Shown here: piece after piece, positions 1 to 48,643 of the stretch
How the letters are laid out: each line of letters opens with the position of its first letter
Numbering within the stretch: position 1 is the stretch's first letter
Source of the DNA: Candidatus Micrarchaeota archaeon
GTDB taxonomy: Archaea; Micrarchaeota; Micrarchaeia; Anstonellales; Bilamarchaeaceae
NCBI GenBank assembly: GCA_013425455.1
Contig: JACCLI010000011.1
Span: 1 to 48,643 of the forward strand
DNA: 48,643 bases
Reading direction: 5' to 3'
Position numbers and translations under genes: made by a program
The notes under the pieces: model-generated
The model's database searches: none
Told to the model about the DNA's origin: nothing
The model's input: the letters and a program-made list of their open reading frames with translations, nothing else

Positions 1-10
1 TAAATATGAA

Positions 11-128
11 GTGTCAGCAGCAGTCCGCGTTCCCGTCCGTAGGACAGTACAGGCAAAACCGTAAAGGGGCTTAACTTCCGAGTTCGAGATGGGATCGGGT
101 GTTTCCCCCTTCCTATGGCCGCTGACAA
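11..128 (-). rRNA. 5S ribosomal RNA (stand-alone, ends +/-3 nt)
   Basis: Reverse complement reads GUCAGCGGCCAUAGGAAGGGGGAAACACCCGAUCCCAUCUCGAACUCGGAAGUUAAGCCCC...GGACUGCUGCUGAC. It contains the conserved 5S block CCCGAUCCCAUCUCGAACUCGGAAGUUAAGC. The terminal helix I is GUCAGCGG/CUGCUGAC. Confidence 0.85.
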
Positions 129-150
129 AATATTGATAGTCGGGAAGGGT

Positions 151-158
151 TTTTAAAA
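151..158. promoter_or_regulatory. Palindromic TATA-like box TTTTAAAA, possibly serving both the 5S rRNA (minus) and the CDS at 184 (plus)
   Basis: The box lies about 23-30 nt from the 5S 5' end (about 126-128) and about 26-33 nt from ATG 184. This is classical archaeal TATA spacing in both directions. Confidence 0.4.
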
Positions 159-183
159 CATATCCATACACTAATAATCTAAT

Positions 184-1332
184 ATGACCACCAAACCATC
201 CTACAAGATCCCTCCTATGAGCCATGACCATGTCCGCTGGGCAATAGGGGACATCCTGAAGGACCCGGAGGGGCCGCTCAAGGGCGTGAGGATGCCCGAG
301 GCGCTTTCCGGTGGCAAGCCTGACGCGCAGGCTGTGGTTGACCTCCTCTCATCCTGCGGCATAAGGCGGGGGGCGAAAGAATTCTTTTCCAGGGTGCTGG
401 AAAACGCGGATGAGGACGCGGATCTGGTGGACCGCCACATCGCCGGGTACGGAAAGGGGCTGAACATCGCCGCAAAATCGCTCATACGCATAATTGTCGT
501 GAACACGAAGGAAGAAAAGCCGGATATGGAGATGGAATCCGCCCTTTTCGCATGCATCGATGCCGCGGGCAAGATGCGTGAGAAGGACAGCGGGCTTGCG
601 CTCGCCTTCCTTGAATTCTGCGGAAGCGCGGCATTCGGCTCCGAGCATCTCAAGAAGGTTTCCAGGCATTGCGGAAGGGATGAGGTGATCGAAACGGCTC
701 TCTCGATCAAACAGTCCCCGAAGGAGAACACCGGCTCCGTAATGGAGGAATTCTTCCTTGCAGTGCACCAAGTGGCCTGCAACATAAAGGAGGAACACGA
801 AATCGAGGGGATCCTCCGATTCTTCCTGGAAGCGTGCCTTACCGTCTCAGGGAAATGCCCAGAAGCGCTCTATTCCTTCATATATTATTTCTGCAATTCC
901 TCCTGGGAGAGCATCGAGGAAGGTTTGCTCTACATTGGAATATTCTCAACCCCGGGAGTTCTGCAGGCATTCTCTTCCATGGGCAAGAACTATGCGCGCA
1001 TAGCGGAACTTGCGGATGAATGCTTTAATATCGCGAAGTCGGCGGCGAATAGGGCGGATGAAGGCTGCGACGGCATCCAGGAGGCGGTCCCATGCTTCTC
1101 CGAAGCTCTTGGAAAGCTGGGCGGCAGCTGGCCGGCGGCAACAATCCCCTTCGCTCGGTATTTCCACATGCTTCTGAAGGACAAAAAACTAGAGAGTGTG
1201 CAGCGGCTTGCGGACAATTTCACCTCGGAAGATAACCTCCGGGCGCTGGAAGACCTGAAGGACGACCCGCGGATGCAGCTTGCCCTTATGGAAGCCTGCT
1301 ACATGGCCGCGGTGGGCACCGCAGCAAACTAG
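184..1332 (+). CDS. Hypothetical all-alpha cytoplasmic protein (382 aa)
   Basis: Long ORF with protein-like composition and TATA-like spacing upstream. No motif I can assign. The antisense ORFs are Arg/Pro/Ser-rich shadows. Confidence 0.6.
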   Translation: MTTKPSYKIPPMSHDHVRWAIGDILKDPEGPLKGVRMPEALSGGKPDAQAVVDLLSSCGIRRGAKEFFSRVLENADEDADLVDRHIAGYGKGLNIAAKSLIRIIVVNTKEEKPDMEMESALFACIDAAGKMREKDSGLALAFLEFCGSAAFGSEHLKKVSRHCGRDEVIETALSIKQSPKENTGSVMEEFFLAVHQVACNIKEEHEIEGILRFFLEACLTVSGKCPEALYSFIYYFCNSSWESIEEGLLYIGIFSTPGVLQAFSSMGKNYARIAELADECFNIAKSAANRADEGCDGIQEAVPCFSEALGKLGGSWPAATIPFARYFHMLLKDKKLESVQRLADNFTSEDNLRALEDLKDDPRMQLALMEACYMAAVGTAAN

Positions 1333-1368: not shown

Positions 1369-2523
1369 ATGTCCCTTCTTGTAGGCATAGTGGGCAAGCC
1401 CAACGCGGGCAAAAGCACCTTCTTCTCTTCCCTCACGATGGTTGATGCGAAGATTGCGCCTTATCCGTTCACTACTCTGGAGCCGAACACCGGGGTCGGG
1501 CACGTGCGCAAGAAGTGCCCGCATTTGGAAAGGGGGAAGAAATGCTCGCCCCAGGATTCCGCGTGCGAAAATGGAATTCGGTATGTGCCGGTGAAGCTTT
1601 TGGATGTTGCCGGGCTTGTGCCCGAGGCGCACAAGGGGCGCGGGCTGGGATTGCAGTTTTTGGACGACCTCCGGACCGCGGACGGCTTCATACAGGTGGT
1701 GGACGGGAGCGGCAAGAGCGATTTGGAGGGGAACCCCACGCAGGGGGCGGACCCGGCGGACGAAGTGCGCTTTTTGGAGCTGGAGCTAGAACAGTGGATA
1801 TTCGGCATTTTGGAGAAGAATTGGAAGAAGATAAAGGGGCGCGGGATTGCGGAGCTCGCGGAAATCCTCACTGGATTGAAGGTCACTATCCCGCAGGCGG
1901 AGAGGATTGCAAAGGAGCTGAACCTGCCTTTGGAGAGAATAGAGTGGAACGAGGCGGAGCGCCTCTCCTTTGCGAAAAAGATACTCGAGACGAAGCCGAT
2001 GGTGGTTGCGGCTAACAAGATGGACTCCGGCGCGGATTTGAAGGCACTGCAAAAGGAATTGCACGGTAAAAAGGTAATCCCCTGCTCCGCGCTCTACGAA
2101 CTGGTCCTGAGGAAGGCTGCGAAAGCGGGGAGCATCGAATACTGGCCAGGGGACGCGGACTTCAAGATTCTGAAGGCAACCAAGGAGCAGGAGGAGGCGC
2201 TGAAGCGCGTAAAGGATTATCTTTCCACGCACGGAAGCAGCGGGGTGCAGCAGGCGCTCGAGTCCCTTGTGTTTGGCGGCTTGCACCGGATCGCGGCATA
2301 CCCTGTGGAGGATGAGTCCAAATGGGAGGACAGGAAGGGCAATCTCCTCCCGAACGTGCACCTGATGGAGGAGGGAAGCACCGCAATCGATCTGGCGGAG
2401 AGGGTGCACACCGACCTCGCGAAGAAATTCATAGGCGCGATAGACGCAAAAACGGGAAAACGCATAGGAAAAGAATATGTATTAAAAGACTCTGATGTGA
2501 TTAAGATAGTCTCAGGAAGGTGA
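1369..2523 (+). CDS. Obg-superfamily GTPase with C-terminal TGS domain (Ygr210/YchF-like)
   Basis: G1 GKPNAGKST, G3 DVAGLVPEAHKGRGLG, G4 AANKMD, and a C-terminal TGS-like KDSDVIKIVSGR. Start taken at ATG 1369 (MSLLVGIVG). The ORF track starts at TTG 1351. Confidence 0.8.
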   Translation: MSLLVGIVGKPNAGKSTFFSSLTMVDAKIAPYPFTTLEPNTGVGHVRKKCPHLERGKKCSPQDSACENGIRYVPVKLLDVAGLVPEAHKGRGLGLQFLDDLRTADGFIQVVDGSGKSDLEGNPTQGADPADEVRFLELELEQWIFGILEKNWKKIKGRGIAELAEILTGLKVTIPQAERIAKELNLPLERIEWNEAERLSFAKKILETKPMVVAANKMDSGADLKALQKELHGKKVIPCSALYELVLRKAAKAGSIEYWPGDADFKILKATKEQEEALKRVKDYLSTHGSSGVQQALESLVFGGLHRIAAYPVEDESKWEDRKGNLLPNVHLMEEGSTAIDLAERVHTDLAKKFIGAIDAKTGKRIGKEYVLKDSDVIKIVSGR

Positions 2524-2527
2524 TTTT

Positions 2528-3865
2528 TTGGACAAGAATATATTATATCCAATAATATCAGTAATCGTGGTCATACTGGTCGCGGCGGGCATATACATTG
2601 CCGCAGAGGCGCTGGGCGGAACGAAGCCACACGACGGGGGTGGGGAAACCGCCATAAATGCAAGCGAACTCTACTTCCGCGCGATAGAGAAGCCCATCGG
2701 GGCCGGCGATTATATCTATTCATACAGGGAATCCTACGAGAACGGCTACTGGATGGACGTGACGGTTTCCAGGAAGGGGGACCTGCAATACGTGGAAAAG
2801 AGGGACCCTGCATACGGAAGACAGGCGTATCTCCAGCCGAATTCCACAATATTGTGCATAAAACACCTGAACGATAACATATGCGTCTCCCTGAACAGCA
2901 CCTCCCGCTTCATCAGCTATGCTGGAGACCTCGGAAGGATGCTCTACGACCAGGAGGCGCTGCGCCAGATGTCCGAGATGAACAGGAAGCTCCATTCCCA
3001 TGGCGCGCTTGTTTTTGAGGAGGCCTCGGAAAAAACAGTGAACGGCCATGAATGCGTGGAATTGAATTATAGCATAGATTATTCCGGCCTCACCGTGGCA
3101 CAGCTCAACGACATGGGCCTCTCGGTGAACAGCCCGCTTGTGCTCCGATCCAAGCAATACAACTATTCCATGTGCGTGGACCCGGAGAGCTACGAAATGT
3201 ACGAGAAGAGGATAGACTTCGTGGACCTGGGCCAGTACCGGATGATAAGGTCTGAGACCTCGACCATCACCTGGGGCACGGGGATGGATGTAACGGTGCC
3301 CACCCAGCTCTCCAGCGAGGATGACCTGTACGGGCTTTATGCAAACGTGAAGCAGGAGGCTGATGAATACTATGCCTGCCTTGGCCAGAACGGCTCCGAC
3401 AGGTGCATAGCCGAGGTTGCGATCGGCTGGAAGGACCCGGTGCTTTGCGAAGAGACGCAGGCAGAGAAAGATTTCTGCTTCCTCAACGCGGGCCTGGGTG
3501 CTGAGGACCCTTCAGCATGCGATAAGGTGAGCGCAAGCATAAAGGACACCTGCTATATAGAATTCGCGAACAAGATGAAGAATACGAGCTTCTGCGGGCT
3601 CATCATCAACGCTACGATGAAGCAGCAGTGCCTCGCGCTCAACATGACCGGGACCGGTGAATGCGGCAGGGATGCGGACTGCGTGCGCGCGGGATGCTCC
3701 TCTCAATTGTGCCTGCCGGCCTCACAGAGCGACACGATTACAACGTGCGAATATGTGCCCGAGTTCGCATGCCTCGCGCAGACTACATGCGGATGTGTGG
3801 ACGGGCGGTGCTCCTGGAGGCAGACGCCGGAGTACCTTAACTGCTTAAACCAAACTATGGGGTGA
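2528..3865 (+). CDS. Membrane-anchored/secreted protein with cysteine-rich C-terminal domain
   Basis: N-terminal hydrophobic helix ILYPIISVIVVILVAAGIYIAA. Several N-x-S/T sequons. The C-terminus is CGRDADCVRAGCSSQLCLPAS..TCEYVPEFACLAQTTCGCVDGRCSW, with 9 Cys in about 55 aa. TTG start in the ORF track. Confidence 0.6.
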   Translation: MDKNILYPIISVIVVILVAAGIYIAAEALGGTKPHDGGGETAINASELYFRAIEKPIGAGDYIYSYRESYENGYWMDVTVSRKGDLQYVEKRDPAYGRQAYLQPNSTILCIKHLNDNICVSLNSTSRFISYAGDLGRMLYDQEALRQMSEMNRKLHSHGALVFEEASEKTVNGHECVELNYSIDYSGLTVAQLNDMGLSVNSPLVLRSKQYNYSMCVDPESYEMYEKRIDFVDLGQYRMIRSETSTITWGTGMDVTVPTQLSSEDDLYGLYANVKQEADEYYACLGQNGSDRCIAEVAIGWKDPVLCEETQAEKDFCFLNAGLGAEDPSACDKVSASIKDTCYIEFANKMKNTSFCGLIINATMKQQCLALNMTGTGECGRDADCVRAGCSSQLCLPASQSDTITTCEYVPEFACLAQTTCGCVDGRCSWRQTPEYLNCLNQTMG

Positions 3866-4250: not shown

Positions 4251-5406
4251 CCGCACCTTTCAGGAGAAGGTACATTCCATACGAAAGGGGAACTTCTTTC
4301 TTTTCCCCTTTCTCCAATTTTTCCATCGTTGAGTTTAGGAACTCCTGCGCAGGTATTGGCTGGAGCGCCTCTATTTTGATTGGCTCCCCCCCAAAAGCTG
4401 CCGCATCCCTGTAAGGCTCGAAGTTATCTAGCGATTTGAGCTCCTTTGCAATCAGGCCAGTGGAGCCGTGCAGTGTGTTCGGGACGCGGATGAGCCTCTT
4501 GGTGTCTATTGTCACGCCCGTATCCACATCTATGCATTGCACCGGCAGCATCTTCGCCACCACCCCCATCCTGTCCACGATGTCCTTGATGCTGGTCTTG
4601 CTCCAGAGCCCCGTGCGCATCCCCTCCCTCAAAAGGGCGGCTTCCTCCGGCTTCAGGAGCCTGCGGTGGATTGCGCCCGGATTCTCCTCCAACAACTTCA
4701 CGGCCATCCTGTAGAACCTTCCGCGATAGCCCCAATCCCCCTCCCTCGGCCCGTATGTTTTCCATTTGTCCTCCTCCGGGGAGGAGAAGAAACTCCTGTA
4801 ATCTAATCCTTTTCCTGCTATGTAATCGCTTATCTCCCTTCTCGCGTCCCCCTCCAGCATCCTGTACGCCGGGTCCCGCACGTGCACATGGTATCCCCGG
4901 TTCCCTGAGAACACTATCTTGAGGCTGTCCCTCCGCACGCCGAAATCCGAGAGCAGGAAGTCCTCCACCAGCCTCATTGCGTCGCTTCTCACTTTTTCCT
5001 GCTCCTCCTTAGATAGGAAAAGCCCCGCGTGCACGTCCAGGTCAAATATGAGGTCCCCGCCGCCCCACCCCTTGTTCTCCATCGGGGTCGCCTTCGGGAA
5101 CTTGTAGTATGCGATTGAATGTGAGATGTAGAGCGGGGTGTCCTTGATTAGGTAATTCTGCAGGGCCGCGTTGCTCTCGAAGCCCATGTGCCTGGACTCT
5201 ATCTTCTTCTCGAAGCCGCCCACCCCGAACTCCCTCTGCTCCACGCTGGGCACCTCTATGCTAGCCTTCCGGTAGTATTCCGAGAAGCGCTTCAGGACGA
5301 ACTGCTTTTCCTTTTCTTCCAATTTTCCACCTTTCCCTTCCAATTCAGCGGGCTGCCTATCCTGCAGTCCGCGACGCAAATCCCGTAGCTCAGGAGCGTT
5401 GCGCAC
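4234..5406 (-). CDS. priS: DNA primase small (catalytic) subunit PriS
   Basis: Archaeo-eukaryotic primase motifs DLIFDLDVH, SGNRGYHVHV and RVPNTLHGSTGL. ATG 5406 overlaps priL by about 115 nt. A TTG at 5322 (giving MEEKEKQFVLKRFSEYY) or at 5343 is the more likely start. Confidence 0.85.
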   Translation of the reverse strand: MRNAPELRDLRRGLQDRQPAELEGKGGKLEEKEKQFVLKRFSEYYRKASIEVPSVEQREFGVGGFEKKIESRHMGFESNAALQNYLIKDTPLYISHSIAYYKFPKATPMENKGWGGGDLIFDLDVHAGLFLSKEEQEKVRSDAMRLVEDFLLSDFGVRRDSLKIVFSGNRGYHVHVRDPAYRMLEGDARREISDYIAGKGLDYRSFFSSPEEDKWKTYGPREGDWGYRGRFYRMAVKLLEENPGAIHRRLLKPEEAALLREGMRTGLWSKTSIKDIVDRMGVVAKMLPVQCIDVDTGVTIDTKRLIRVPNTLHGSTGLIAKELKSLDNFEPYRDAAAFGGEPIKIEALQPIPAQEFLNSTMEKLEKGEKKEVPLSYGMYLLLKGAVTLSS

Positions 5407-6245
5407 GCGGGCATGGTGTACCCCCTCTTGACCACGTGCTCCAGCTGGTATTTGGTTTTCTTTTCATCGTAATCCGGCAGGTTTGAGAAGATTGAATGGA
5501 CCTTTTCCATTGATACATTTTTCGATAATAGATAAACTGCCAGCGCCCACCTCGCCTGGTGGTTGAGGTTCTGGTGCGCCCTCGCCTGTTCCAATAGTTT
5601 TTCTATGCAGGGGGGGTTGTCGCCCTCCTTGAAGCTCATCTTCATCACCGCCTCCTTCGGGACGAGCACCATGAGCTTTTTGGAATATTCCTGGATTATC
5701 TTCGGAGGGCTCTGCACCGGCTTGAGCGCCTCCATCCTTATTCTCACCGCCTCCTCCATCAGCCTGATTACCTCCGGCCTTTTCACCTCCACGAAACCTT
5801 TCGCGACGTTGCGGAAGATGAGGCGGTAGTCCACGGAGCGGGGAGAAAAGGAAACGTACTGGGAGACGGGCAGCACCATCCTTCCCTCGAACTCAGTGGG
5901 CTTTATGCCCAGTTCGTCACCCAATTTTCTGATGTTTTCCTCGGAGTCCGAGCGCATAAATGAAGAGGCGCGCTTCGCCTCCGCGACCGCGAACCTCCCG
6001 GTGAGAAACCTGTTTTTCAGATATGCGAGCATCACCCTCGCCGCCGCATACGAGCCTAATTCGATAAGTTCGTCCGAGGGGTGCAGGCGGTAGGCGTGCT
6101 CCTTTTCCCCTTTCAGCGCGGCGACCACCCTCTGCACCGCCCTTTCCATTATCTCATCATTCAGTTCCAGGGAGGAGCCTTCCACCTTCTGTTTCGCTTC
6201 GGAGGTGAAGGGGTATTTGGATGAAAACGAGAACTCCATACGCAC
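5292..6245 (-). CDS. priL: DNA primase large subunit PriL
   Basis: Fe-S cluster cysteines in PPCIEKLL and MPACATLLSYGICVADC. Lies immediately upstream of and overlapping priS. Confidence 0.85.
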   Translation of the reverse strand: MRMEFSFSSKYPFTSEAKQKVEGSSLELNDEIMERAVQRVVAALKGEKEHAYRLHPSDELIELGSYAAARVMLAYLKNRFLTGRFAVAEAKRASSFMRSDSEENIRKLGDELGIKPTEFEGRMVLPVSQYVSFSPRSVDYRLIFRNVAKGFVEVKRPEVIRLMEEAVRIRMEALKPVQSPPKIIQEYSKKLMVLVPKEAVMKMSFKEGDNPPCIEKLLEQARAHQNLNHQARWALAVYLLSKNVSMEKVHSIFSNLPDYDEKKTKYQLEHVVKRGYTMPACATLLSYGICVADCRIGSPLNWKGKVENWKKRKSSSS

Positions 6246-29871: not shown

Positions 29872-29977
29872 AAAACAGCCGTTTGGAGGGTTATGATTAT
29901 GGTAAAGAGATTCGCTCTTTGCGCCGATGTATGGGGCACGGAGCGAAGAAGGGGGGTATCCCCCCTCTTCTTCCAAT

Positions 29978-30075
29978 CGGGCCCGGTGGGATTTGAACCC
30001 ACGACCTACATCTTAGGAGGATGCCGCGCTATCCAGGCTGCGCTTCCCGGCGCAATTTCTTGCGCATACGGGCCC
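29978..30075 (-). tRNA. tRNA-Arg (anticodon CCU) with 23-nt insertion (putative non-canonical intron, about 30044..30066)
   Basis: Reverse complement: GGGCCCG UA [UGCGCAAGAAAUUGCGCCGGGAA] GCGC AGCCUGGAUA GCGC G GCAUC CUCCUAA GAUGU AGGUC GUGGG UUCAAAU CCCAC CGGGCCC G. With the bracketed 23 nt removed this is a perfect 75-nt cloverleaf. Confidence 0.8.
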
Positions 30076-36394: not shown

Positions 36395-36459
36395 CGTATG
36401 TAACTACTGCCTAGAGGGTGCGGGAACGGCAACCGCACGGGCAAAAGAGAGGTGGTCAA

Positions 36460-37707
36460 ATGAAAACGGAAAAAATAAAGGTCCGCGGGATGCGCTGCAA
36501 GTCCTGCGAGGAAAGAATTGAGAAAGCCGTGAAGGCGGTGGAGGGAGTGGTTAGCGTGAAGGTGTCCCAGCAGAAAGGGGAGGTGGAGGTGATAACGGAC
36601 GATGCGGACAGGAAGGACTTGGAAGAGGCGATAAGGAAGGAAGGGTACTCCGTGGGCGGAGGATGGTTCTGGGTAGCGATTGGGGTGGCGGCACTCTTTG
36701 CCGCCGCCCTTCTCCTGGAAAATCTTGGGCTGGGCATACGGTTTCCGGAGGTTGGGGGGGAAGTGGGATATGCTGCATTGTTTGTTTTGGGGCTGGCCAC
36801 GGGATTCCACTGCATAGCGATGTGCGGAGGATTCGTGCTTGGTTATTCCTCTAGATCTGGAGCGGCCATAACACCTCACATATTGTACGGGGCGGGCAAG
36901 CTGCTTTCATACACATTCATAGGCGCGGTTTTCGGGCTGATTGGCTCGGCGATTGCCTTCACCCCGGAGATGAGGGCCGGGGCAGCGCTGCTTGCGGGGA
37001 TATTTCTTCTATTGTACGGGCTGGGGATGCTCGGGATAAGCGGATTGGCGGGAATACGGTTCGGGATGCCTGGATTTGTTAACGGGATTATGCAAAAGTT
37101 CGGGGGGCGCGGACCACTCGTAACCGGATTATTGAACGGGCTGATGATTGCATGCGGGCCCCTGCAGGCGATGTACATATTCGCGGCTGGGACCGGTAGC
37201 ATTGTTGCTGGGGCAACTGCGCTATTCTTTTTTGGATTGGGCACTTTGCCGGTGATGCTCGGGTTTGGTGTGCTGGCTGCGAGGGCTGGCGGAAACGTTC
37301 CTGCTAAATTCGCCTCCATCTCCGGGTGGTTGGTTATTTTCCTAGGGATACTTCTGCTGAACCAGGGGCTTACGCTCGTGGGAAAGGGAGTGGTGGTTGG
37401 AACCGGCGGGGAGGGGAATGCAACTTTGCAGAATGGAACTGCATTCCAGGAGATTCGTATGAATGTAACCTACTACGGGTTTGAGCCGAATACATTCACA
37501 CTAAAGAAAGGGGTGCCGGTGAGGTGGGTGATTACTGGTGTGAGCCTTACTTCCTGCAACAATCGGATAATAGTGCCCGCGTATGGGCTGGAGTTTGATG
37601 TGCAGCCCGGAGAGCAAGTGATTGAATTTACTCCGACGGAGGTTGGAGAGATAAAGTGGTCGTGCTGGATGGGAATGATCCCCGGAAAATTCGTGGTGGT
37701 GGAATGA
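36460..37707 (+). CDS. HMA domain - DsbD_2/UreH-like permease - cupredoxin fusion protein
   Basis: N-terminal GMRCKSCEERIE (GMxCxxC). TM domain with GFHCIAMCGGFVLGY. C-terminal cupredoxin-like FEPNTFTLKKGVPVRWVI..SCNNRI..WSCWMGMIPGKFVVVE. Start ATG 36460 preceded by GAGAGGTGG. Confidence 0.8.
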   Translation: MKTEKIKVRGMRCKSCEERIEKAVKAVEGVVSVKVSQQKGEVEVITDDADRKDLEEAIRKEGYSVGGGWFWVAIGVAALFAAALLLENLGLGIRFPEVGGEVGYAALFVLGLATGFHCIAMCGGFVLGYSSRSGAAITPHILYGAGKLLSYTFIGAVFGLIGSAIAFTPEMRAGAALLAGIFLLLYGLGMLGISGLAGIRFGMPGFVNGIMQKFGGRGPLVTGLLNGLMIACGPLQAMYIFAAGTGSIVAGATALFFFGLGTLPVMLGFGVLAARAGGNVPAKFASISGWLVIFLGILLLNQGLTLVGKGVVVGTGGEGNATLQNGTAFQEIRMNVTYYGFEPNTFTLKKGVPVRWVITGVSLTSCNNRIIVPAYGLEFDVQPGEQVIEFTPTEVGEIKWSCWMGMIPGKFVVVE

Positions 37708-37800
37708 TTGGAAAGGATATAGGTGCGTCAGGAGTACGTGCAAAGGGTTGCAAAGTGAAGTGGGGGAGGGTCAGAATGACCGGTAAAAATGGGGCAATAG

Positions 37801-37911
37801 TTTCGCAGTGGCGAAACTGTGCGCATTTTTCCCGCTGGAAAAATAGCGAGGGTGCTCCCTCCGCGTTTTTCCGAGGGAATGATACCCGGGAAGTTTGTGG
37901 TTGTAGAATGA
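37801..37911 (+). pseudogene. Remnant of a cupredoxin-domain gene (3' end duplicate)
   Basis: Frame reads FRSGETVRIFPAGKIARVLPPRFSEGMIPGKFVVVE*. The last 12 codons (37876-37911) match the last 12 codons of the 36460..37707 gene, with 6 differences that are all synonymous third-position changes. There is an in-frame stop at 37798 and no ATG before 37879. Confidence 0.45.
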
Positions 37912-37915
37912 TGAG

Positions 37916-38509
37916 GTGAAAAAAATGGAAGGAAAGGCTTGGTTGTTGGCGGGCCTGTTTGTGGTCATGGTTTTTGCCGCGATCGTTTATGCGGCCACCA
38001 TGAAGCCGCAGCAGGCGGAGGATGATTTGGGAGGGGGCTCCTGCGGGAACGCCGGGGCGGATGGGTGCTTCGCGGACGGGGGCGGGGGTGCGGTGGCTGC
38101 GCCTGCGACATATGCGCCTTCCGCGACGGTAAACAGGAGCAGGGAGCTCGAGCTCCAGGCGGCTGGGGAGGTGCGAACGTTTGAGCTGGGTTTTGACTGG
38201 GGCTCCGGAAACTACGAGCCTGAAGAGATACGGGTGCGGGCAGGGGACAGGGTGAGGATTGAGGCGGACGCGGGCACGTTCACAGGATGCATGTCAACGC
38301 TAGTGATTAACGGGATGGGCATAAGCAAGAGTATTACAACGACGGACAATGTGCTGGAATTCACCGCGGGCACGCCGGGGCGGTACAGGCTCACCTGCGG
38401 GATGGGAATGGGCAACGGATTGCTCGTGGTGGAGGACGAAAACGGGCTTGTGCCCGAGGCGGCTCCTGCTGCGCCCGCGCGCACCGGAGGGTGTGGGTGC
38501 GGAGGATAG
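37916..38509 (+). CDS. Secreted/membrane-anchored cupredoxin-domain protein
   Basis: Signal/anchor [18 protein letters not shown]. Cupredoxin-like [43 protein letters not shown]-terminal GGCGCGG. GTG 37916 or ATG 37925. Confidence 0.65.
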
Positions 38510-38553
38510 GAAAGGTGCAAAAAAATAATAAGGAGAACGGAGAGGTGAAGGCC

Positions 38554-40770
38554 ATGCCTGAGAAGACCGAGACAATAATAATCCCCGTGGGCGGGATGGA
38601 CTGCGCGTCCTGCGCGATGAGCATAGAGACCATGCTGAAGAGCACAAAAGGAGTGAGGGATGCGCGGGTTAATTTCGCCTCCCAGAAGGCGACCGTGGAG
38701 TACGTGCCTTCAGAGATAGGGATGCCTGCGATTGAGGCAATCATAACCAAGCTGGGGTTTGAGGTGCTGAGGGAGAAGCCCGGAAAAGACGCGGAAAAAG
38801 AGGCGCGGGAGCGGGAGATAAACGGCTATAGGACGAGGCTTATGGTTGCGGTAGTTGCTGCCGTTCCTGCGGCGATTCTTGCGATGGGGGAGATGACGGG
38901 GATTCCTTTTCCTGAGTGGATAATGGAGAATTCCATGTGGATCCAGTTCCTCCTTGCGACTTTGGCGATAATGGCCGGCTCGCAGTTCTTCACGCGCGGG
39001 ACGAAAGCTCTTATTAACCGGATGCCGACGATGGATTCGCTTGTGGCGATTGGGGTGGGTGCGGCTTATCTGTACAGCGTTGCGGTCACATTTTTGGGAT
39101 TGGAGGGATTTGTCTACTATGAGATTGCGGCAATACTCATCTCGTTCCTACTTCTTGGACGATTGATGGAGGCGACTGCGAGGGGAAAGACCTCCGAGGC
39201 GATAAAAAGATTGATGGGGCTGCAGCCTAAGACCGCGAGGGTGATGCGGGGAAAGGAGGAAGTGGAAATTCCCATCGCGAACGTGAAAGTTGGGGATGTG
39301 CTGGTTATCCGTCCAGGAGAAAAGATTCCGGTGGACGGGAGTGTGCTGGACGGGGAGTCCTATGTGGACGAGGCCATGATTACCGGCGAACCGATACCTG
39401 TGGCGAAGAGGAAGGGGGCAGTAGTGATTGGGGCGACCATCAACGGGACCGGAAGTTTCAGGATGCGCGCGGAAAAAGTTGGGAAGGATACTATGCTCGC
39501 GCAAATCATCAAGCTGGTGGAGGAGGCGCAGGGCTCCAAGGCGCCAATTCAACGGCTTGTGGATAAGGTTTCTGCTTATTTTGTGCCCACGGTGATGGGG
39601 CTGGCGATAATCGCGGGATTATACTGGTATTTTATTGCGGGAATGGGGTTCGTGTTTGCCCTAACCGCATTTGTTACGACGCTCATAATCGCGTGCCCTT
39701 GCGCGCTCGGGCTGGCGACGCCCACGGCGGTCATGATGGGGACTGGAAAGGGCGCGGAGTACGGCGTGCTGTTCAAGACCGCGAAGGCGCTGGAGGAGGC
39801 GCACAAGGTGCGGATGGTGGTTTTTGACAAGACTGGAACGCTAACGAAGGGGGAGCCGGAGGTTACTGACATTGTCCCGATAGGTATGGATGCGGACGAC
39901 CTTCTCGCCTTTGCGGCCTCGGCTGAGAGGAATTCCGAGCATCCGCTGGGCGAGGCGATTGTGCGAGAGGCGAGGGAGAGCAAGGCCAGGATTGCGGAGC
40001 CGCGCTCCTTCAAGTCGATAACCGGGCGGGGGGTGGAGGCAGGCGTAGGCGGGAAGAAGGTTCTTGTGGGAAATAGAAAGCTCATGGAAGAGAGGAAGGT
40101 CAAGGTTGCTGGGGCGGAGGAGGCGATGACGCAGCTTGAGGAGAAGGGAAGGACCGCGGTTATGGTCGCGGTTGGCGGTAAGATTGCGGGAGTGATCGGG
40201 ATTGCGGATTCCCTAAAGGAGAATTCAGTGGACGCGGTAAGGATGCTCAAGAAGCAAGGGCTCAGGGTGGCGATGATTACTGGCGATAACAGGAGGACGG
40301 CGCAGGCGATTGCAAAGGAGGCGGGAATAGATATGGTGCTTGCGGAAGTGCTTCCCGAGGAGAAGGAGAAGGAAGTGAGGAGGCTGCAGGCAGAAGGGAT
40401 GAAGATTGCATTTGTTGGGGACGGGATAAATGACGCGCCTGCGCTTGCGGCTTCGGACATAGGAATTGCAATCGGGAGCGGGACGGATGTGGCGATAGAG
40501 AGCGGGGACATCGTGCTGGTGAAGGATGATTTGAGGGACGTGGCGAAGGCATTGGACATAAGCAAATACACGATGAAGAAGATAAGGCAGAACCTCTTCT
40601 GGGCGTTCTTCTACAACGTGATCGGGATTCCGGTTGCGATGGGCGTTCTCTATCCATTTACCGGGTTTTTGCTGAACCCGCTTGTTGCCGGGGGGGCGAT
40701 GGCCTTCAGCTCGGTGAGCGTGGTTTCTAATTCCCTTCTCATGAAGGGGTATAAGCCGATCGGGGGGTAA
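38554..40770 (+). CDS. copA: Copper-translocating P1B-type ATPase
   Basis: [17 protein letters not shown], the CPC motif [20 protein letters not shown] and GDGINDAP. Confidence 0.95.
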
Positions 40771-44388: not shown

Positions 44389-44925
44389 ATGCGGATAATG
44401 GTGCTGAGGCTCGGGCACAGGCTCCCGAGGGATGAGCGCGTCACGACGCACGTGTGCCTCACTTCCCGGGCTTTCGGGGCTTCTGGAGTAATCTACTCGG
44501 GGCAGAAGGACAATTCCCTGGAGGCGAGCGTTAAGAGGATTGCAAACAACTGGGGCGGGGAGTTTTCAATAGAGTATGAGGCGAAGCCGATTCCACGGAT
44601 TGAAAAAATGAAAAAGGAGGGGTGGGCGGTGGTTCACCTTACCATGTACGGAATGCCGCTTCCGGAAAAGGTTAAGGATGTTGCAGGAAAGGGAAAAGTA
44701 TTGGTAGTAGTCGGGGCGGAGAAGGTTCCTTCGGAGGTTTATGAGCTCGCGGACTTCAATATCGCGGTGGGGAACCAGCCGCATTCGGAGATTGCGGCGC
44801 TCGCAGTAACGCTGGACAGATTGCAGGGCGGAAAGGAGCTGGAACGGGCATTCGAATCTAATTTTGGAGGGGCATCAATATCGCTGGAGCCAGCGGAAAA
44901 AGGAAAAAAGATAAGAAGGGGCTAA
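44389..44925 (+). CDS. tRNA (cytidine56-2'-O)-methyltransferase aTrm56 (SPOUT)
   Basis: MRIMVLRLGHRLPRDERVTTHVCLTSRAFGA is the characteristic aTrm56 N-terminus. About 178 aa. Confidence 0.85.
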   Translation: MRIMVLRLGHRLPRDERVTTHVCLTSRAFGASGVIYSGQKDNSLEASVKRIANNWGGEFSIEYEAKPIPRIEKMKKEGWAVVHLTMYGMPLPEKVKDVAGKGKVLVVVGAEKVPSEVYELADFNIAVGNQPHSEIAALAVTLDRLQGGKELERAFESNFGGASISLEPAEKGKKIRRG

Positions 44926-46586
44926 GGAGCCCCTGTTGCGCTTGTGCAGGTCATGGTCTGGCCGCAGTAGTATGGGCTGCAGCAATCTGCGGTGCTCGTG
45001 CAGTAGGTGCCGTACCCACCGCAGGTCTGCTCAGGCATGCAAACGAGGTTGTCGTTGCAATAGTAGCCATCGCAGCATACTGCGGCGCCCACTGCGCAGG
45101 AGCCGGATGTCGCGCAGGTTGTGGTGCTCCTTGTGCAAACCTTGTTCTCGCTGCAGTAGTAGCCGTCGCAGCAGTCGGAGGTCTTTTCACAGGAGCCTTC
45201 CCTCTTGCACGGAACCACGCATCTGCTGTTGGAGCAGGACATGCCTGCGCAGCATTCCTTCCTGCCCGCTAGGCAGGAGCCGCCCTCTGTGGCTGTGCAC
45301 TCGCTGCTGCATTTGCCGTCCTTGCACCAGGAGCCCTGGCAGCAGTCGGAATCGTACGCGCATGTGCCGCCGTTCTGCTCGCATGGGGTTACGCATCTGC
45401 CATCCATGCACTCGTAGCCCTCGCAGCAGGATATCTGCCCGTAGGCGCAGGTCTGGCCCTGCCCGGAGCATCCCTGGTTCGGGGTGCACCTTCCGTTCGC
45501 GCAGTAGTCCCCCTCGCAGCAGGTTCCGTAGTAGTTAGAACCCGCAGGCGCGGCGGTAGTCGCGTACTGCGTCCCGTAGCCGCATGTGCCTGCTGTCTGC
45601 ACGCAGTTCTGTGCCGGCGGTGAGCAGTATCCGTTCACGCACTGGTCATCACCACAGCAATCCCCGTAGTAGGCCGGGTTCTGGTAGTTGGCCGTGAAGG
45701 TCTGCGGGCCGTAGCCGCAGAACTGTCCGCGCTCGTTGCACTGTTCTTCAGGCGGCTGGCATGTTCCATCCACGCACGCCATCTGGTTGCAGCACTGGCC
45801 GTAGTAGTTCGAGGTCGCGGGCACTAGCGCCGTAACCGTTGTCTGGCCGTAACCGCAGGTCGCTCCCTGCTCTATGCACTCCTGTTGCGGGGTGCAGTAC
45901 CCTTCCATGCACTGCGAGTTGCCGCAGCATTCCCCATAATAGGTCGGGCGGTAGATTGAATTGTAGTTGCTGGTGCCCATGTTGTTGTTCGCAGTTCCAG
46001 CGGTGTTGGTGTTGGCGCCCGCAGCATTGGTACCATCGGTGTTGATGTTGGTCGCGCTGGTGTAAGTCCCTGGATTATATGGCAGGGTGTCGCGCTCGCC
46101 GGTCGGGCCGTATTGGCAGAGCCGGCCGTCAGGAACACACTCATCCCTCCTGCAGTAGCCGTCCCTGCATGCCGTCCCGTCACAGCAGTCGCCGTAGAAC
46201 GGGGTGCTTGCTGCGAGGTTGGTCAGCGGACTCTGCCCGTAGCCGCACTGGTTCCCCTCCTGGACGCATTCCTCTTCGCAGGTCGGGGTCTCAACGCAGT
46301 ATTCCATCGCGTAGCAGTTCACGCCCCTGGTCCTTCCGCCCGTATCTACATACGTGGAAGGCCTTCCGAGGGCGCTGCTCGCGTCGAGCACGTTTCCTCC
46401 GGACGTTTGGATCGTCCTCCCCGTTTCGTTCGGGGCGTAATATGCCGTGCCTCCGGTCTGACCGGTTATCGAGCTGCCTCCGCACTCGTTTGTGCAGGGC
46501 TTGAACCCGAGGACCGAAGCCGCCACGAAGGCCAGCATCAGAATCACTATTCCAAGCAAGAATAAGGTTAATTTGCCGGTATCCAT
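44922..46586 (-). CDS. Secreted/anchored protein with 11 tandem six-cysteine C-C-CC-C-C (knottin-framework) modules
   Basis: N-terminal hydrophobic helix LTLFLLGIVILMLAFVAASVLGF. 71 Cys in 554 aa. There are 11 modules between C107 and C547 with spacing C-x5-7-C-x(5-6 or 19-62)-CC-x4-C-x4-5-C. Confidence 0.7.
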   Translation of the reverse strand: MDTGKLTLFLLGIVILMLAFVAASVLGFKPCTNECGGSSITGQTGGTAYYAPNETGRTIQTSGGNVLDASSALGRPSTYVDTGGRTRGVNCYAMEYCVETPTCEEECVQEGNQCGYGQSPLTNLAASTPFYGDCCDGTACRDGYCRRDECVPDGRLCQYGPTGERDTLPYNPGTYTSATNINTDGTNAAGANTNTAGTANNNMGTSNYNSIYRPTYYGECCGNSQCMEGYCTPQQECIEQGATCGYGQTTVTALVPATSNYYGQCCNQMACVDGTCQPPEEQCNERGQFCGYGPQTFTANYQNPAYYGDCCGDDQCVNGYCSPPAQNCVQTAGTCGYGTQYATTAAPAGSNYYGTCCEGDYCANGRCTPNQGCSGQGQTCAYGQISCCEGYECMDGRCVTPCEQNGGTCAYDSDCCQGSWCKDGKCSSECTATEGGSCLAGRKECCAGMSCSNSRCVVPCKREGSCEKTSDCCDGYYCSENKVCTRSTTTCATSGSCAVGAAVCCDGYYCNDNLVCMPEQTCGGYGTYCTSTADCCSPYYCGQTMTCTSATGAP

Positions 46587-46755: not shown

Positions 46756-47022
46756 ATGCCCGTAGAAGATGAGATAATACATTGGTGGAAGGATGATAAG
46801 GGCGAACAGCACCGGACCATCCTCCGCATAGAGAGCGAGGAGCCCCAGAGTGCGAACGGATTCCCCAGGGATGGGATAATCATCGTAAGGGTGTCGAACA
46901 CGACCGGGATGGCTGCGATGAAGCTGAGCCCGGACGAGGGATTGCGGCTGTCCAACCAGATTCTGACCATCTCCAAGGAACTGCTGAACAAGAAAAGAAA
47001 AATGTGGAGGGAACGGGACTAG
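46756..47022 (+). CDS. Small hypothetical protein (88 aa) between the two Cys-rich genes
   Basis: ATG preceded by GGAGGTGG. Protein-like sequence MPVEDEIIHWWKDDKGEQHRTILRIE... No motif assigned. Confidence 0.4.
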   Translation: MPVEDEIIHWWKDDKGEQHRTILRIESEEPQSANGFPRDGIIIVRVSNTTGMAAMKLSPDEGLRLSNQILTISKELLNKKRKMWRERD

Positions 47023-47880
47023 CTAACTCTCGCACACGTGCGTGTTCATGTTGCAGGCTTCCCCGCTCTCGCAATCTGAGTTGGTATTGCAGTTTCCTGC
47101 CTTGGGGACGCAGTGGTGGTTCGCAGTGTAGCAGACCTCCCAGGAATTGCAATTCGCTGTCGCATCGCAGTAGCCCGGCTTCGGCCTGCAGGTGTGGGTA
47201 TTCCCAATTTCGCAGTACTGCCATTCGTTGCAATCCGTGTCGTGACCGCAGAAACCAGGGCCTGTAACGCACCTGCTGGTTTCCCTGTTGCACGATTGCC
47301 AGTTGGCGCAATCATCCGCGCTCACGCAGAAGCCCGGCCTGGGCTTGCAGAAATGTGACTCCGCGTCGCAGGCCTGCCAGCCCACGCAGTCCACGTCGTC
47401 GTTGCACCTGTCCTGGAACGCCACGCACACCTTCTGCGCGACATCGCATCCCTCCCATGAGTTGCAGTCATAGTCGTTCTCGCACCTTCCGGGGAGCAGG
47501 GAGCACCTGTGCGACTCTGGATCGCAGGCCTCTATCTCCGCCCTGCAGTCCCCGTTTGAGGCACAGTAGCCTGAGAGCGGCTTGCATGTGCCGTCCGTGC
47601 CGCAGGTCTGCCAGCGCACGTCACAGTCCGTAGCCTGTGCGCAGGCGCCCGCCTTCATAAGGCAGATGTGCGTGGTGGTGTTGCACTGCTGGTTCGAGGT
47701 GCAGTCGGCGTTCGCGGAACAGTATCCAGCCTTAACCGCGCAGGTGCCGTTCTGGCAGGACTGCCATGTTTGGCAGTTGGAATCGGAAGTGCATCCGGCC
47801 GGGGCTGTGCTTTCTCCGCCCGTGCAGCCATAAAGGATAATCATAACAGCCATAAGACCTGCAATAAGTAACTTCTGCAT
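47023..47880 (-). CDS. Lipobox protein with 10 tandem ~24-aa four-cysteine modules
   Basis: Signal plus lipobox-like MQKLLIAGLMAVMIILYGC. Then 10 repeats of G-x-C-x5-C-x5-6-C-x4-7-C, often ..DCxxWQxC.. 41 Cys in 285 aa. Confidence 0.7.
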   Translation of the reverse strand: MQKLLIAGLMAVMIILYGCTGGESTAPAGCTSDSNCQTWQSCQNGTCAVKAGYCSANADCTSNQQCNTTTHICLMKAGACAQATDCDVRWQTCGTDGTCKPLSGYCASNGDCRAEIEACDPESHRCSLLPGRCENDYDCNSWEGCDVAQKVCVAFQDRCNDDVDCVGWQACDAESHFCKPRPGFCVSADDCANWQSCNRETSRCVTGPGFCGHDTDCNEWQYCEIGNTHTCRPKPGYCDATANCNSWEVCYTANHHCVPKAGNCNTNSDCESGEACNMNTHVCES

Positions 47881-47922
47881 TTTCACACCTTTTGTGATAG
47901 ATATGCGCAAAATCATTAAAAA

Positions 47923-48588
47923 TCAGAGTCTTTTGACAACGCCAAGCAATTCTGAGAAATTGCTTATGTGCGCGTCCGCCTTCCCCTTTTCCTTCGAGTA
48001 CGGGCCCTGCAGGACGCGGATGGTATATATTCCCAATTTCTTCGCCGGGGCGATGTCCGAATCCATCCTGTCCCCGACCATTATGCACTCGGACGGGTGC
48101 GCCTTTATCTCGGCAAGGACCTTCCGGAAGAAGTGCGGGCTTTTTTCCTCCCCTACCTCCCCGGAGACGAAAACATCCTCGAAGAAGAGGTGGATTCCCA
48201 TTCGGATGAGCTTGTCCCATTGTTTTACCGCGTCCCCGTTCGTTGCAACGTATAATTTGTATCCCCTTTCCTTCAGCTCCATCAGGGTTTTCGGCACCTC
48301 GGGGTAGGGCTGTATTGAGGATTTGGTATTATGGTAGGCGGCCACCGCCGCCGCGACGAAGCGGGCCGGGCGCTTTACTCCAATCCTTTTGAGTATGAGG
48401 TCGAAATGGTTCGGGTAGTTGGAGCCCTTTTCCTTAATGAGCCTCTGCAATTCCTTGTAGATTTGCTCCTCTGTGGCATCCAATCCGGTTTCTATCATCG
48501 CGCGGATTGCGTTCCTCCTCGCGAGTTCCGCGAACTCCGCTGTTGGGAACAGGGTATTATCCACATCGAAGAAAATGCAGACCTTCAT
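47923..48588 (-). CDS. HAD-superfamily hydrolase (subfamily IA)
   Basis: Motif I FFDVDNTLF, motif III K in GYKLYVATNG, motif IV VGDRMDSDI. Start at MKVCIFFDVD. Confidence 0.8.
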   Translation of the reverse strand: MKVCIFFDVDNTLFPTAEFAELARRNAIRAMIETGLDATEEQIYKELQRLIKEKGSNYPNHFDLILKRIGVKRPARFVAAAVAAYHNTKSSIQPYPEVPKTLMELKERGYKLYVATNGDAVKQWDKLIRMGIHLFFEDVFVSGEVGEEKSPHFFRKVLAEIKAHPSECIMVGDRMDSDIAPAKKLGIYTIRVLQGPYSKEKGKADAHISNFSELLGVVKRL

Positions 48589-48643
48589 CAAAAGGATTGG
48601 GGATAAATAGCTTTTTATACTGTTCCTCAAGAAATTCTTCTAC

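Follow-up and report, generated by a model that had tools for sequence, protein, structure and literature searches.

A ten-module cysteine-rich protein of a Micrarchaeota archaeon as a candidate lipid-anchored surface rod

This work concerns a cysteine-rich repeat protein of 285 amino acids (aa), encoded by an open reading frame (ORF) on the minus strand at positions 47023-47880 of a 48,643-nucleotide stretch of Candidatus Micrarchaeota archaeon (contig JACCLI010000011.1; the whole stretch is called the window here). We propose, with a probability of about 0.6, that this protein is a membrane-tethered, disulfide-stapled surface rod held by a lipid anchor. It would be exported via a lipoprotein-type signal peptide, the signal would be cleaved before Cys19, and a lipid on this cysteine would hold the protein at the membrane's outer face; a short flexible tether would then be followed by ten modules that pack head to tail in a high-confidence structure prediction, giving what would be a stiff rod. 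Most likely, it would serve the symbiont's envelope as a stable spacer or as a contact fibre. The repeat gene is real and under constraint, as the orthologues described below demonstrate, and its sequence context assigns it to an archaeal DPANN (Micrarchaeota) genome because marker genes of archaea lie in the window (those of aTrm56, the two primase subunits, deoxyhypusine synthase, Pus10 and HMG-CoA synthase) and the contigs with orthologues are labelled Micrarchaeota.

Ten four-cysteine modules behind a lipobox-like signal

The protein contains 41 cysteines (14.4% of its residues) and 7 tryptophans, and its parts are arranged as follows:

47827-47880, minus strand: signal peptide, residues 1-18, consisting of MQK, the hydrophobic stretch LLIAGLMAVMIIL and YG
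47824-47826, minus strand: Cys19, lipobox position +1 and proposed lipid-attachment site, conserved in orthologues
47803-47823, minus strand: flexible tether, residues 20-26 (TGGESTA), with a low predicted local distance difference test score (pLDDT)
47731-47802, minus strand: module 1, residues 27-50
47653-47730, minus strand: module 2, residues 51-76, without Trp, with an N-x-T sequon
47575-47652, minus strand: module 3, residues 77-102, with 73% of its non-Cys positions identical in three close orthologues
47494-47574, minus strand: module 4, residues 103-129, without Trp
47416-47493, minus strand: module 5, residues 130-155, the most conserved, with 82% non-Cys identity in three close orthologues
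47338-47415, minus strand: module 6, residues 156-181
47260-47337, minus strand: module 7, residues 182-207
47179-47259, minus strand: module 8, residues 208-234
47101-47178, minus strand: module 9, residues 235-260
47026-47100, minus strand: module 10, residues 261-285, without Trp; the protein ends 2 residues past its last Cys

A recount from the sequence returned the ORF, the length, the 41 cysteines and the ten four-cysteine modules that an original prediction, made from the DNA letters alone, had described, and all 41 cysteines are kept in two orthologues. The 40 cysteines that follow Cys19 fall into ten modules of 24-27 aa with the pattern C-x5-C-x5(6)-C-x4-7-C (C1 to C4 from here on), separated by a spacing of 6 residues. 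The recurrent Asp-Cys and Trp noted in the same prediction were likewise found on counting, with Asp standing before C2 in 8 of 10 modules (Asn in the other 2) and Trp at the second position ahead of C3 in 7 of 10. The cysteine share of the other window ORFs examined is 0-5%, the exception being a neighbouring gene of 554 aa (12.8%). The mature protein would comprise 267 residues and be acidic (pI ~4.5), with one or two N-glycosylation sequons close to the membrane end.

The amino terminus had been read in the original prediction as a lipobox-like signal ending in ILYG-C19, and hence as that of a secreted or surface protein. Comparison with orthologues agrees with this reading, as [LIVF]-[AFY]-G-C is kept (the orthologue lipobox reads F-G-C or A-G-C) and Cys19, conserved in all five orthologues, is the sole cysteine left over once the other 40 have been assigned to four-cysteine modules. 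A canonical lipobox signal has a charged n-region, a hydrophobic h-region and the motif [L/V/I]-[A/S/T/V/I]-[G/A/S]-C (PMC12462473); positions -3 (Leu), -1 (Gly) and +1 (Cys) of the present one fit this set, while -2 (Tyr) lies outside it. From the odd cysteine count, and because lipoproteins are predicted to be common in DPANN archaea, in which AliA is also predicted (PMC12462473), we infer that Cys19 is lipidated.

A scan that covered one genome per species, with a single-protein query of loci, found two close orthologues. They lie on contigs labelled Candidatus Micrarchaeota, at loci L003 (82% identity) and L004 (69%), the identity extending over all 285 residues, and both encode proteins of 284-285 aa with ten modules and all 41 Cys columns kept. 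The ratio of nonsynonymous to synonymous substitution rates (dN/dS) among close orthologues is 0.11-0.19 at a dS of ~0.9-1.0. P0004 and P0151 (287-292 aa) are more distant orthologues, collinear at ~40% identity; they, too, consist of ten modules, and the modules that lack Trp are the same ones as in the window protein. Thus, the module count is ten in all five full-length orthologues, down to ~40% identity, and because it also holds in P0004 and P0151 the repeat number is fixed rather than variable, which runs counter to the expansion or contraction of the array in relatives that the original prediction had raised as a possibility to be checked. Over the five orthologues, the Gly before C1, the Asp before C2, the Trp and the His before C4 persist and the other surface positions vary, with modules 3 and 5 the best conserved among close relatives, a pattern that fits a scaffold.

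Within the protein, modules are only ~21% identical to each other outside the cysteines, and a tandem repeat at the DNA level was not found in the gene; on this double evidence the array is old. No recent expansion was found, and a two-module super-period was rejected, identity being 0.22 at an offset of one module vs 0.21 at an offset of two. As a separate observation, a 197-aa product on an ENA contig of 738 nt (P0001) joins an amino terminus that by eye is like D-Ala-D-Ala ligase to the last 2.5 modules of an array, 73% identical to a close orthologue, and is probably an assembly chimera.

Predicted fold and relatives of the module

The mature protein was modelled with AlphaFold2 from a 42-row alignment of family segments, and a two-module construct was modelled from 114 rows. 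The full model reached a mean pLDDT of 93.2 and a predicted template modelling score (pTM) of 0.65; pLDDT averaged 58 in the first ten mature residues, which include the tether, and lay at 86-98 elsewhere. In each module, secondary-structure assignment with DSSP gave, in this order, a one-residue bridge adjacent to C1, a 3-10 turn that closes at C2, a first strand with C3 on it, a tight loop and a second strand with C4. Modelling of consecutive repeats, a check suggested along with the original prediction, returned the same elements in the two-module construct at a pLDDT of 90.3, that is, one turn and one hairpin per module, with C3 on strand 1 and C4 on strand 2 in both models.

The segments between modules bear on the idea that the ORF encodes a polyprotein precursor, to be processed between modules into ten separate knottin-like peptides. 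In plants, tandem knottin precursors are cleaved into peptides; here, many inter-module linkers combine a basic residue with Pro-Gly or Ala-Gly (K-P-G, K-A-G), and the module is an autonomous mini-fold, both of which would suit such a precursor. However, the linkers have only six residues and come out rigid in the model, where a beta-bridge joins them to the following module at a pLDDT >90, bacterial homologues do not have the basic linker residues, and a lipid anchor would be of little use to a protein destined for release as peptides. We regard processing of this kind as extremely improbable.

A Foldseek search of the PDB with the full-length model gave nothing significant (best E = 3e-3, with a TM-score of 0.14). 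The two-module model superposed on more than 30 knottins (EETI-II, MCoTI-II and spider toxins among them) at 0.5-1.9 Å along 22-25 residues and with target-normalised TM-scores of 0.5-0.67; Ascaris carboxypeptidase inhibitor, Dkk4 (N-terminal region)/Dkk1 and draxin were also among the fold matches of this construct. The core geometry of a knottin, with a turn before Cys III and a hairpin that bears Cys V and VI, is found in the model, at E-values (0.9-7) that are not significant. The six-cysteine knot of the inhibitor cystine knot is not: knottins have six cysteines and a knot, whereas the modules have four and are missing the counterparts of Cys I and IV. Set against the EETI-II sequence, the spacing places C1-C4 of the module on knottin Cys II, III, V and VI, and the Foldseek identity counts fit this assignment. 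The superposition on the knottin core suggests two disulfides per module, C1-C3 and C2-C4. We take the likeness to knottins as a consistent resemblance and not as proof, and on the model a knottin core that lacks the knotting disulfide would be the best description of the module.

Since inhibitors figure so prominently among these matches, an array of protease or other enzyme inhibitors that shields the cell surface, in the manner of squash knottins or of the Ascaris carboxypeptidase inhibitor, has to be weighed. The nearest structural matches are indeed the Ascaris protein (query-normalised TM-score 0.45), EETI-II and MCoTI-II (~1 Å), but the likeness is limited to the scaffold, the squash inhibitory loop sits between knottin Cys I and II, a segment missing from the repeat modules, and homologues carry the array as an N-terminal stalk of unrelated domains, a peptidase among them. 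Inhibition as the function of the array is, in our judgement, improbable.

Besides knottins, the module recalls a fold termed disulfide-directed beta-hairpin (DDH), which is defined by a hairpin with C1-C3 and C2-C4 disulfides and is known solely from single-domain peptides of arachnids and a sea star (PMC11891777). As in DDH, the repeat modules have four cysteines, of which C2 follows a turn and C3 and C4 each sit on one strand of the hairpin, with a connectivity that is here predicted; in contrast to the known DDH members, which are single-domain animal toxins or peptides, they form a putative ten-module prokaryotic lipoprotein. The only statistically strong structural matches were to predicted structures of viral proteins in BFVD (Foldseek E down to 8e-12, probability 1.0). 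These targets are cysteine-rich membrane proteins of Pithovirus, Cedratvirus and Pandoravirus, uncharacterised predictions some of which are named 'EGF-like', and the likeness is local, module by module, with a global TM-score of ~0.15. Arrays of like modules seem to be common in giant viruses, as judged from these models.

At the sequence level, the original prediction had left the repeat without a family, which can now be amended. The closest profile is DUF5885 (PF19232), whose curated gathering cut-off stands at 33.2 bits: at 32.7 bits (E = 6.6e-8, four matched stretches), the window protein falls short of it by 0.5 bit, and its orthologues at L003 (44.1 bits) and L004 (54.5 bits) pass it, with several other relatives at 18-33 bits. 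DUF5885 is a Pfam family of unknown function, and the best-scoring stretch of each repeat protein is confined to profile positions ~13-117 of 265, under half of the profile. Other members of the wider family match Dickkopf_N (PF04706; 4 of 75 scanned members, best E = 1.2e-19) and DUF7107 (PF23416; 4 of 75, best E = 1.1e-30, with a further member, P0026, at 46.8 bits), and P0010 matches the EB module (PF01683) weakly (E = 0.0013). The window protein matched the Dickkopf_N, DUF7107 and EB models nowhere at E <= 1. The DUF7107 (48 positions) and EB (52 positions) profiles are each about two modules long; Dickkopf is a eukaryotic Wnt antagonist, and a common function with the repeat protein is not implied. 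On these scores, we place the repeat protein as a further member of a catalogued, uncharacterised DUF5885-like family.

NCBIfam gave no match for the window protein, and neither did PDB sequences searched with it; profiles retrieved only non-significant matches among PDB sequences (TmAFP, scytovirin and LA modules). Two of these were set aside. The beetle antifreeze beta-solenoid (TmAFP, 1EZG; E = 0.04), which is built of 12-residue coils with TCT motifs, was retrieved from Cys periodicity alone, and the model consists of discrete hairpin modules, with no T-x-T ladder; the calcium-binding LDL-receptor class A module (E = 0.06-7), which has an acidic calcium cage and six Cys in ~40 residues, aligned out of register, across the boundary of the two modules. 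A family with known function was thus matched in none of the Pfam, NCBIfam and PDB searches, and the clear match of this kind that had been named as a finding against the original prediction did not appear.

An exhaustive HMMER search recovered 229 clusters at a cut-off of E <= 1e-3, 86 of which also passed E <= 1e-10, with members in bacteria, archaea and one animal; a word-index homologue search gave 1 match for the single protein as query, 4 for alignment A1 and 0 for the short two-module profile A4. Named members are few, namely 'hypothetical protein' entries of Micrarchaeota metagenome-assembled genomes, a Phycisphaerales bacterium, JGI metagenomes and one brachiopod protein. The family consensus module is P-G-x-C-x-[ST]-D-x-D-C-x-x-[GW]-[EQ]-x-C-[DN]-x-x-T-[GH]-x-C. 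The animal member (P0052, Lingula anatina XP_013409678.1, annotated as 'prion-like-(Q/N-rich) domain-bearing protein 25') scores E = 9e-16 against the archaeal protein, and because of this match the module family spans bacteria, archaea and animals. In 105 of 152 homologues, a lipobox-like motif is present by residue 45, with the array usually following ~8 residues after it; by the look of their sequences, most members would be lipoproteins, and many of them bacterial.

Possible roles as stalk, contact fibre or lectin

What follows the array in the wider family points to its role. The C-terminal partner domains include RCC1 propellers, TSP type-3 repeats, peptidase C25 with PPC, VWA, alpha-amylase, malectin, CBM_4_9, beta-propeller, beta-helix and dockerin, and because these partners vary across the family and the array follows the lipobox, the array would serve as a stalk that holds a C-terminal working domain off the membrane. 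In the repeat protein of the window, which ends two residues past the last cysteine, the rod itself would therefore be the working part. Its candidate contacts are the host surface, the own surface layer of the cell and glycans, and it is possible that the rod is adhesive or binds glycans.

The glycan option can be taken further, to a multivalent lectin or adhesin with an aromatic-plus-polar site in each module (W-Q/E with Asp) that would bind sugars of the host or of the cell itself, as scytovirin or hevein-type proteins do; this reading does not conflict with the rod model, but treats the binding of a ligand as the primary function. The cyanobacterial lectin scytovirin is the top match of the two-module profile among PDB sequences, with C-x5-C-x5-C-x5-C and both its repeats in the right Cys register (E = 0.021 with this profile and up to 0.5), and it also appears in the Foldseek list (E = 0.36, TM-score 0.10). 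In scytovirin, the disulfides of the matching segment are 1-3 and 2-4. The fixed Trp of 7 of the 10 modules and the malectin, CBM or amylase domains of some family members would suit a lectin as well. None of the scytovirin matches is significant, however, and scytovirin differs in having two repeats on long linkers and a fifth disulfide. Furthermore, the wider family has Gly about as often as Trp at the Trp position, the three modules without Trp are consistently the same in orthologues, for which a packing role fits better than binding, and no surface patch is conserved over the five orthologues. We consider it unlikely that sugar binding is the main function.

Several observations weigh against the lipid-anchored rod. 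Position -2 of the lipobox is Tyr or Phe, outside the canonical bacterial set. The Foldseek E-values of the knottin matches (0.3-7) are not significant because the module is so small, and paired Cys loss over 1754 aligned units involved too few substitutions to indicate the connectivity. The stalk argument is drawn from homologues with C-terminal domains, and the repeat protein has none. Some relatives come from sediments that may be anoxic, as the assembly name of L003 suggests, a setting in which the formation of 20 disulfides would call for an explanation. Finally, a literature search returned no paper that mentions DUF5885, PF19232 or DUF7107, and nothing relevant on cysteine-rich surface proteins of Micrarchaeota.

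Micrarchaeota live attached to host archaea, and the surface molecules of this contact are largely unknown. For DPANN biology, the conserved and confidently modelled surface rod and its cysteine-rich neighbour, described below, would be two candidate contact molecules; for protein evolution, bacteria and archaea would use knottin-like two-disulfide hairpins in long tandem arrays, which bear on the origin of cystine-knot and Dickkopf-type modules. The 26-residue rod-stacking module could also be usable as a stable scaffold. The find is a putative ten-module DDH-like lipoprotein of a DPANN symbiont next to a true knottin array, and expectations are not overturned by it. The family is already catalogued as a DUF. 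The DDH-like fold has been little discussed beyond animal toxins. A more far-reaching version, which we hold to be doubtful, is that tandem DDH-like modules are an old cross-domain lipid-anchored stalk unit, either related to or independent of the knottin, Dickkopf-N and EB modules, and that in Micrarchaeota the bare rod and the knottin-array protein bind the host cell.

Gene start and neighbourhood

The elements around the repeat gene that are discussed in this section are the following:

47923-48630, minus strand: HAD-hydrolase gene, upstream of the repeat gene
47915-47922, minus strand: TATA-like box TTTTTAAT, ~38 nt 5' of the ATG, a pattern match alone
47886-47890, minus strand: Shine-Dalgarno-like AGGTG (GGTG core), 5 nt 5' of the ATG at 47880
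47023-47025, minus strand: stop codon TAG of the repeat gene, abutting the stop of the convergent small ORF
46759-47022, plus strand: small ORF of ~87 aa (MPVEDEIIHWWKDDKGEQHRT...), no Cys, converging on the repeat gene so that the stops abut
44922-46586, minus strand: knottin-array gene, 554 aa, 71 Cys (12.8%)
36418-40770, plus strand: metal-handling cluster, with a fusion of HMA, DsbD_2 and a cupredoxin-like domain, a signal-peptide-bearing cupredoxin-like protein and a heavy-metal P-type ATPase

An alternative in-frame ATG at 47916 would extend the product by 12 residues to 297 aa, and is without a ribosome-binding motif. The signal peptides of homologues have 18-22 residues, which the start at 47880 fits and the start at 47916 does not. 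Because of this length and of the Shine-Dalgarno motif, the ATG at 47880, giving 285 aa, is the likelier start. An exact-sequence look-up found neither the 285-aa nor the 297-aa product on record. The TATA-like box lies directly 3' of the stop codon of the HAD-hydrolase gene, with which the repeat gene may be co-transcribed.

On the minus strand, the order is HAD hydrolase, repeat gene, the small plus-strand ORF and the knottin-array gene, after which comes aTrm56 on the plus strand. The repeat gene had been described as lying downstream of the knottin-array gene; on the minus strand it lies upstream (5') of it, with the small ORF between the two. This small ORF had no Pfam match and is kept at the same place in L003 and L004. 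The 554-aa protein consists of tandem knottin-type six-Cys modules (C-x6-C...CC-x3-C-x4-C), some with long Asn/Thr-rich loops, and its N-terminal hydrophobic segment matches the archaeal Pilin_N weakly (E = 0.068).

Like the repeat protein, the 554-aa neighbour is a secreted tandem array of small disulfide modules, and the two differ in that its modules have six cysteines with a CC doublet instead of four, and in that its amino terminus is transmembrane or pilin-like where the repeat protein has a lipobox. The two architectures had been called unrelated, which is probably not the case: the four-cysteine module superposes on the knottin core, and hhalign sets its C1-C4 on Cys II, III, V and VI of the neighbour, with a probability of only 22%. 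The two proteins may thus be structurally related.

L004 keeps the gene order of the window, including the pair of repeat gene and knottin-array gene, and its homologue of the latter visibly has at least one additional C-terminal module. At L003, the place of the knottin-array gene is taken by two small ORFs (1404-2007, minus strand) that by eye look like a MazF/PemK-type toxin and a ribbon-helix-helix antitoxin, and the genes of P0004 and P0151 adjoin a downstream gene of the AP_endonuc_2 type, common to both, with no cysteine-rich neighbour. Since the pairing is kept in L004 and absent around distant orthologues, it is local to close relatives. Of the dedicated surface function that had been proposed for the side-by-side genes, the surface protein stands, the pairing is kept only in the close relative L004, and host attachment is a guess.

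The metal-handling cluster, ~6 kb away, bears on a reading of the repeat protein as a metal- or mineral-binding protein with its cysteines as thiolates instead of disulfides; metal or mineral binding as such had been put forward in the original prediction. Four cysteines in each module, a protein that is 14% cysteine, a habitat that may be anoxic and copper-resistance genes in the same window would all be compatible with this, but CxxC and CxC motifs are absent, the predicted fold and the regular spacing of 5-7 residues agree with scaffolds held by disulfides, the protein is extracytoplasmic, and the copper cluster is not adjacent to the repeat gene and is unlinked to it in the relatives examined. 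We found no support for metal or mineral binding and give it little credence. The DsbD_2 gene was also considered as a partner in disulfide formation and discarded, as it is fused to HMA and cupredoxin and adjoins a copper ATPase, which points to metal handling.

Some further features were recorded in the window and at the loci compared. A 445-aa ORF of the window (2528-3865, plus strand) has an N-terminal hydrophobic segment, 22 cysteines (4.9%) and no Pfam match, and from its sequence may be another exported protein rich in cysteine, the third of the window. At L004, an additional ORF lies between aTrm56 and DUF475/TerC (~4580-5660), with LAGLIDADG-like motifs by eye, at a place where the window has only ~110 nt; it may be a homing-endonuclease insertion. 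Upstream of P0004, at locus L005, an ORF (2-1042, minus strand) resembles by eye a TnpB/OrfB-type transposon protein. Lastly, the window carries a 5S rRNA gene (12-126, minus strand) and a tRNA-Arg(CCT) gene (29977-30054, minus strand).

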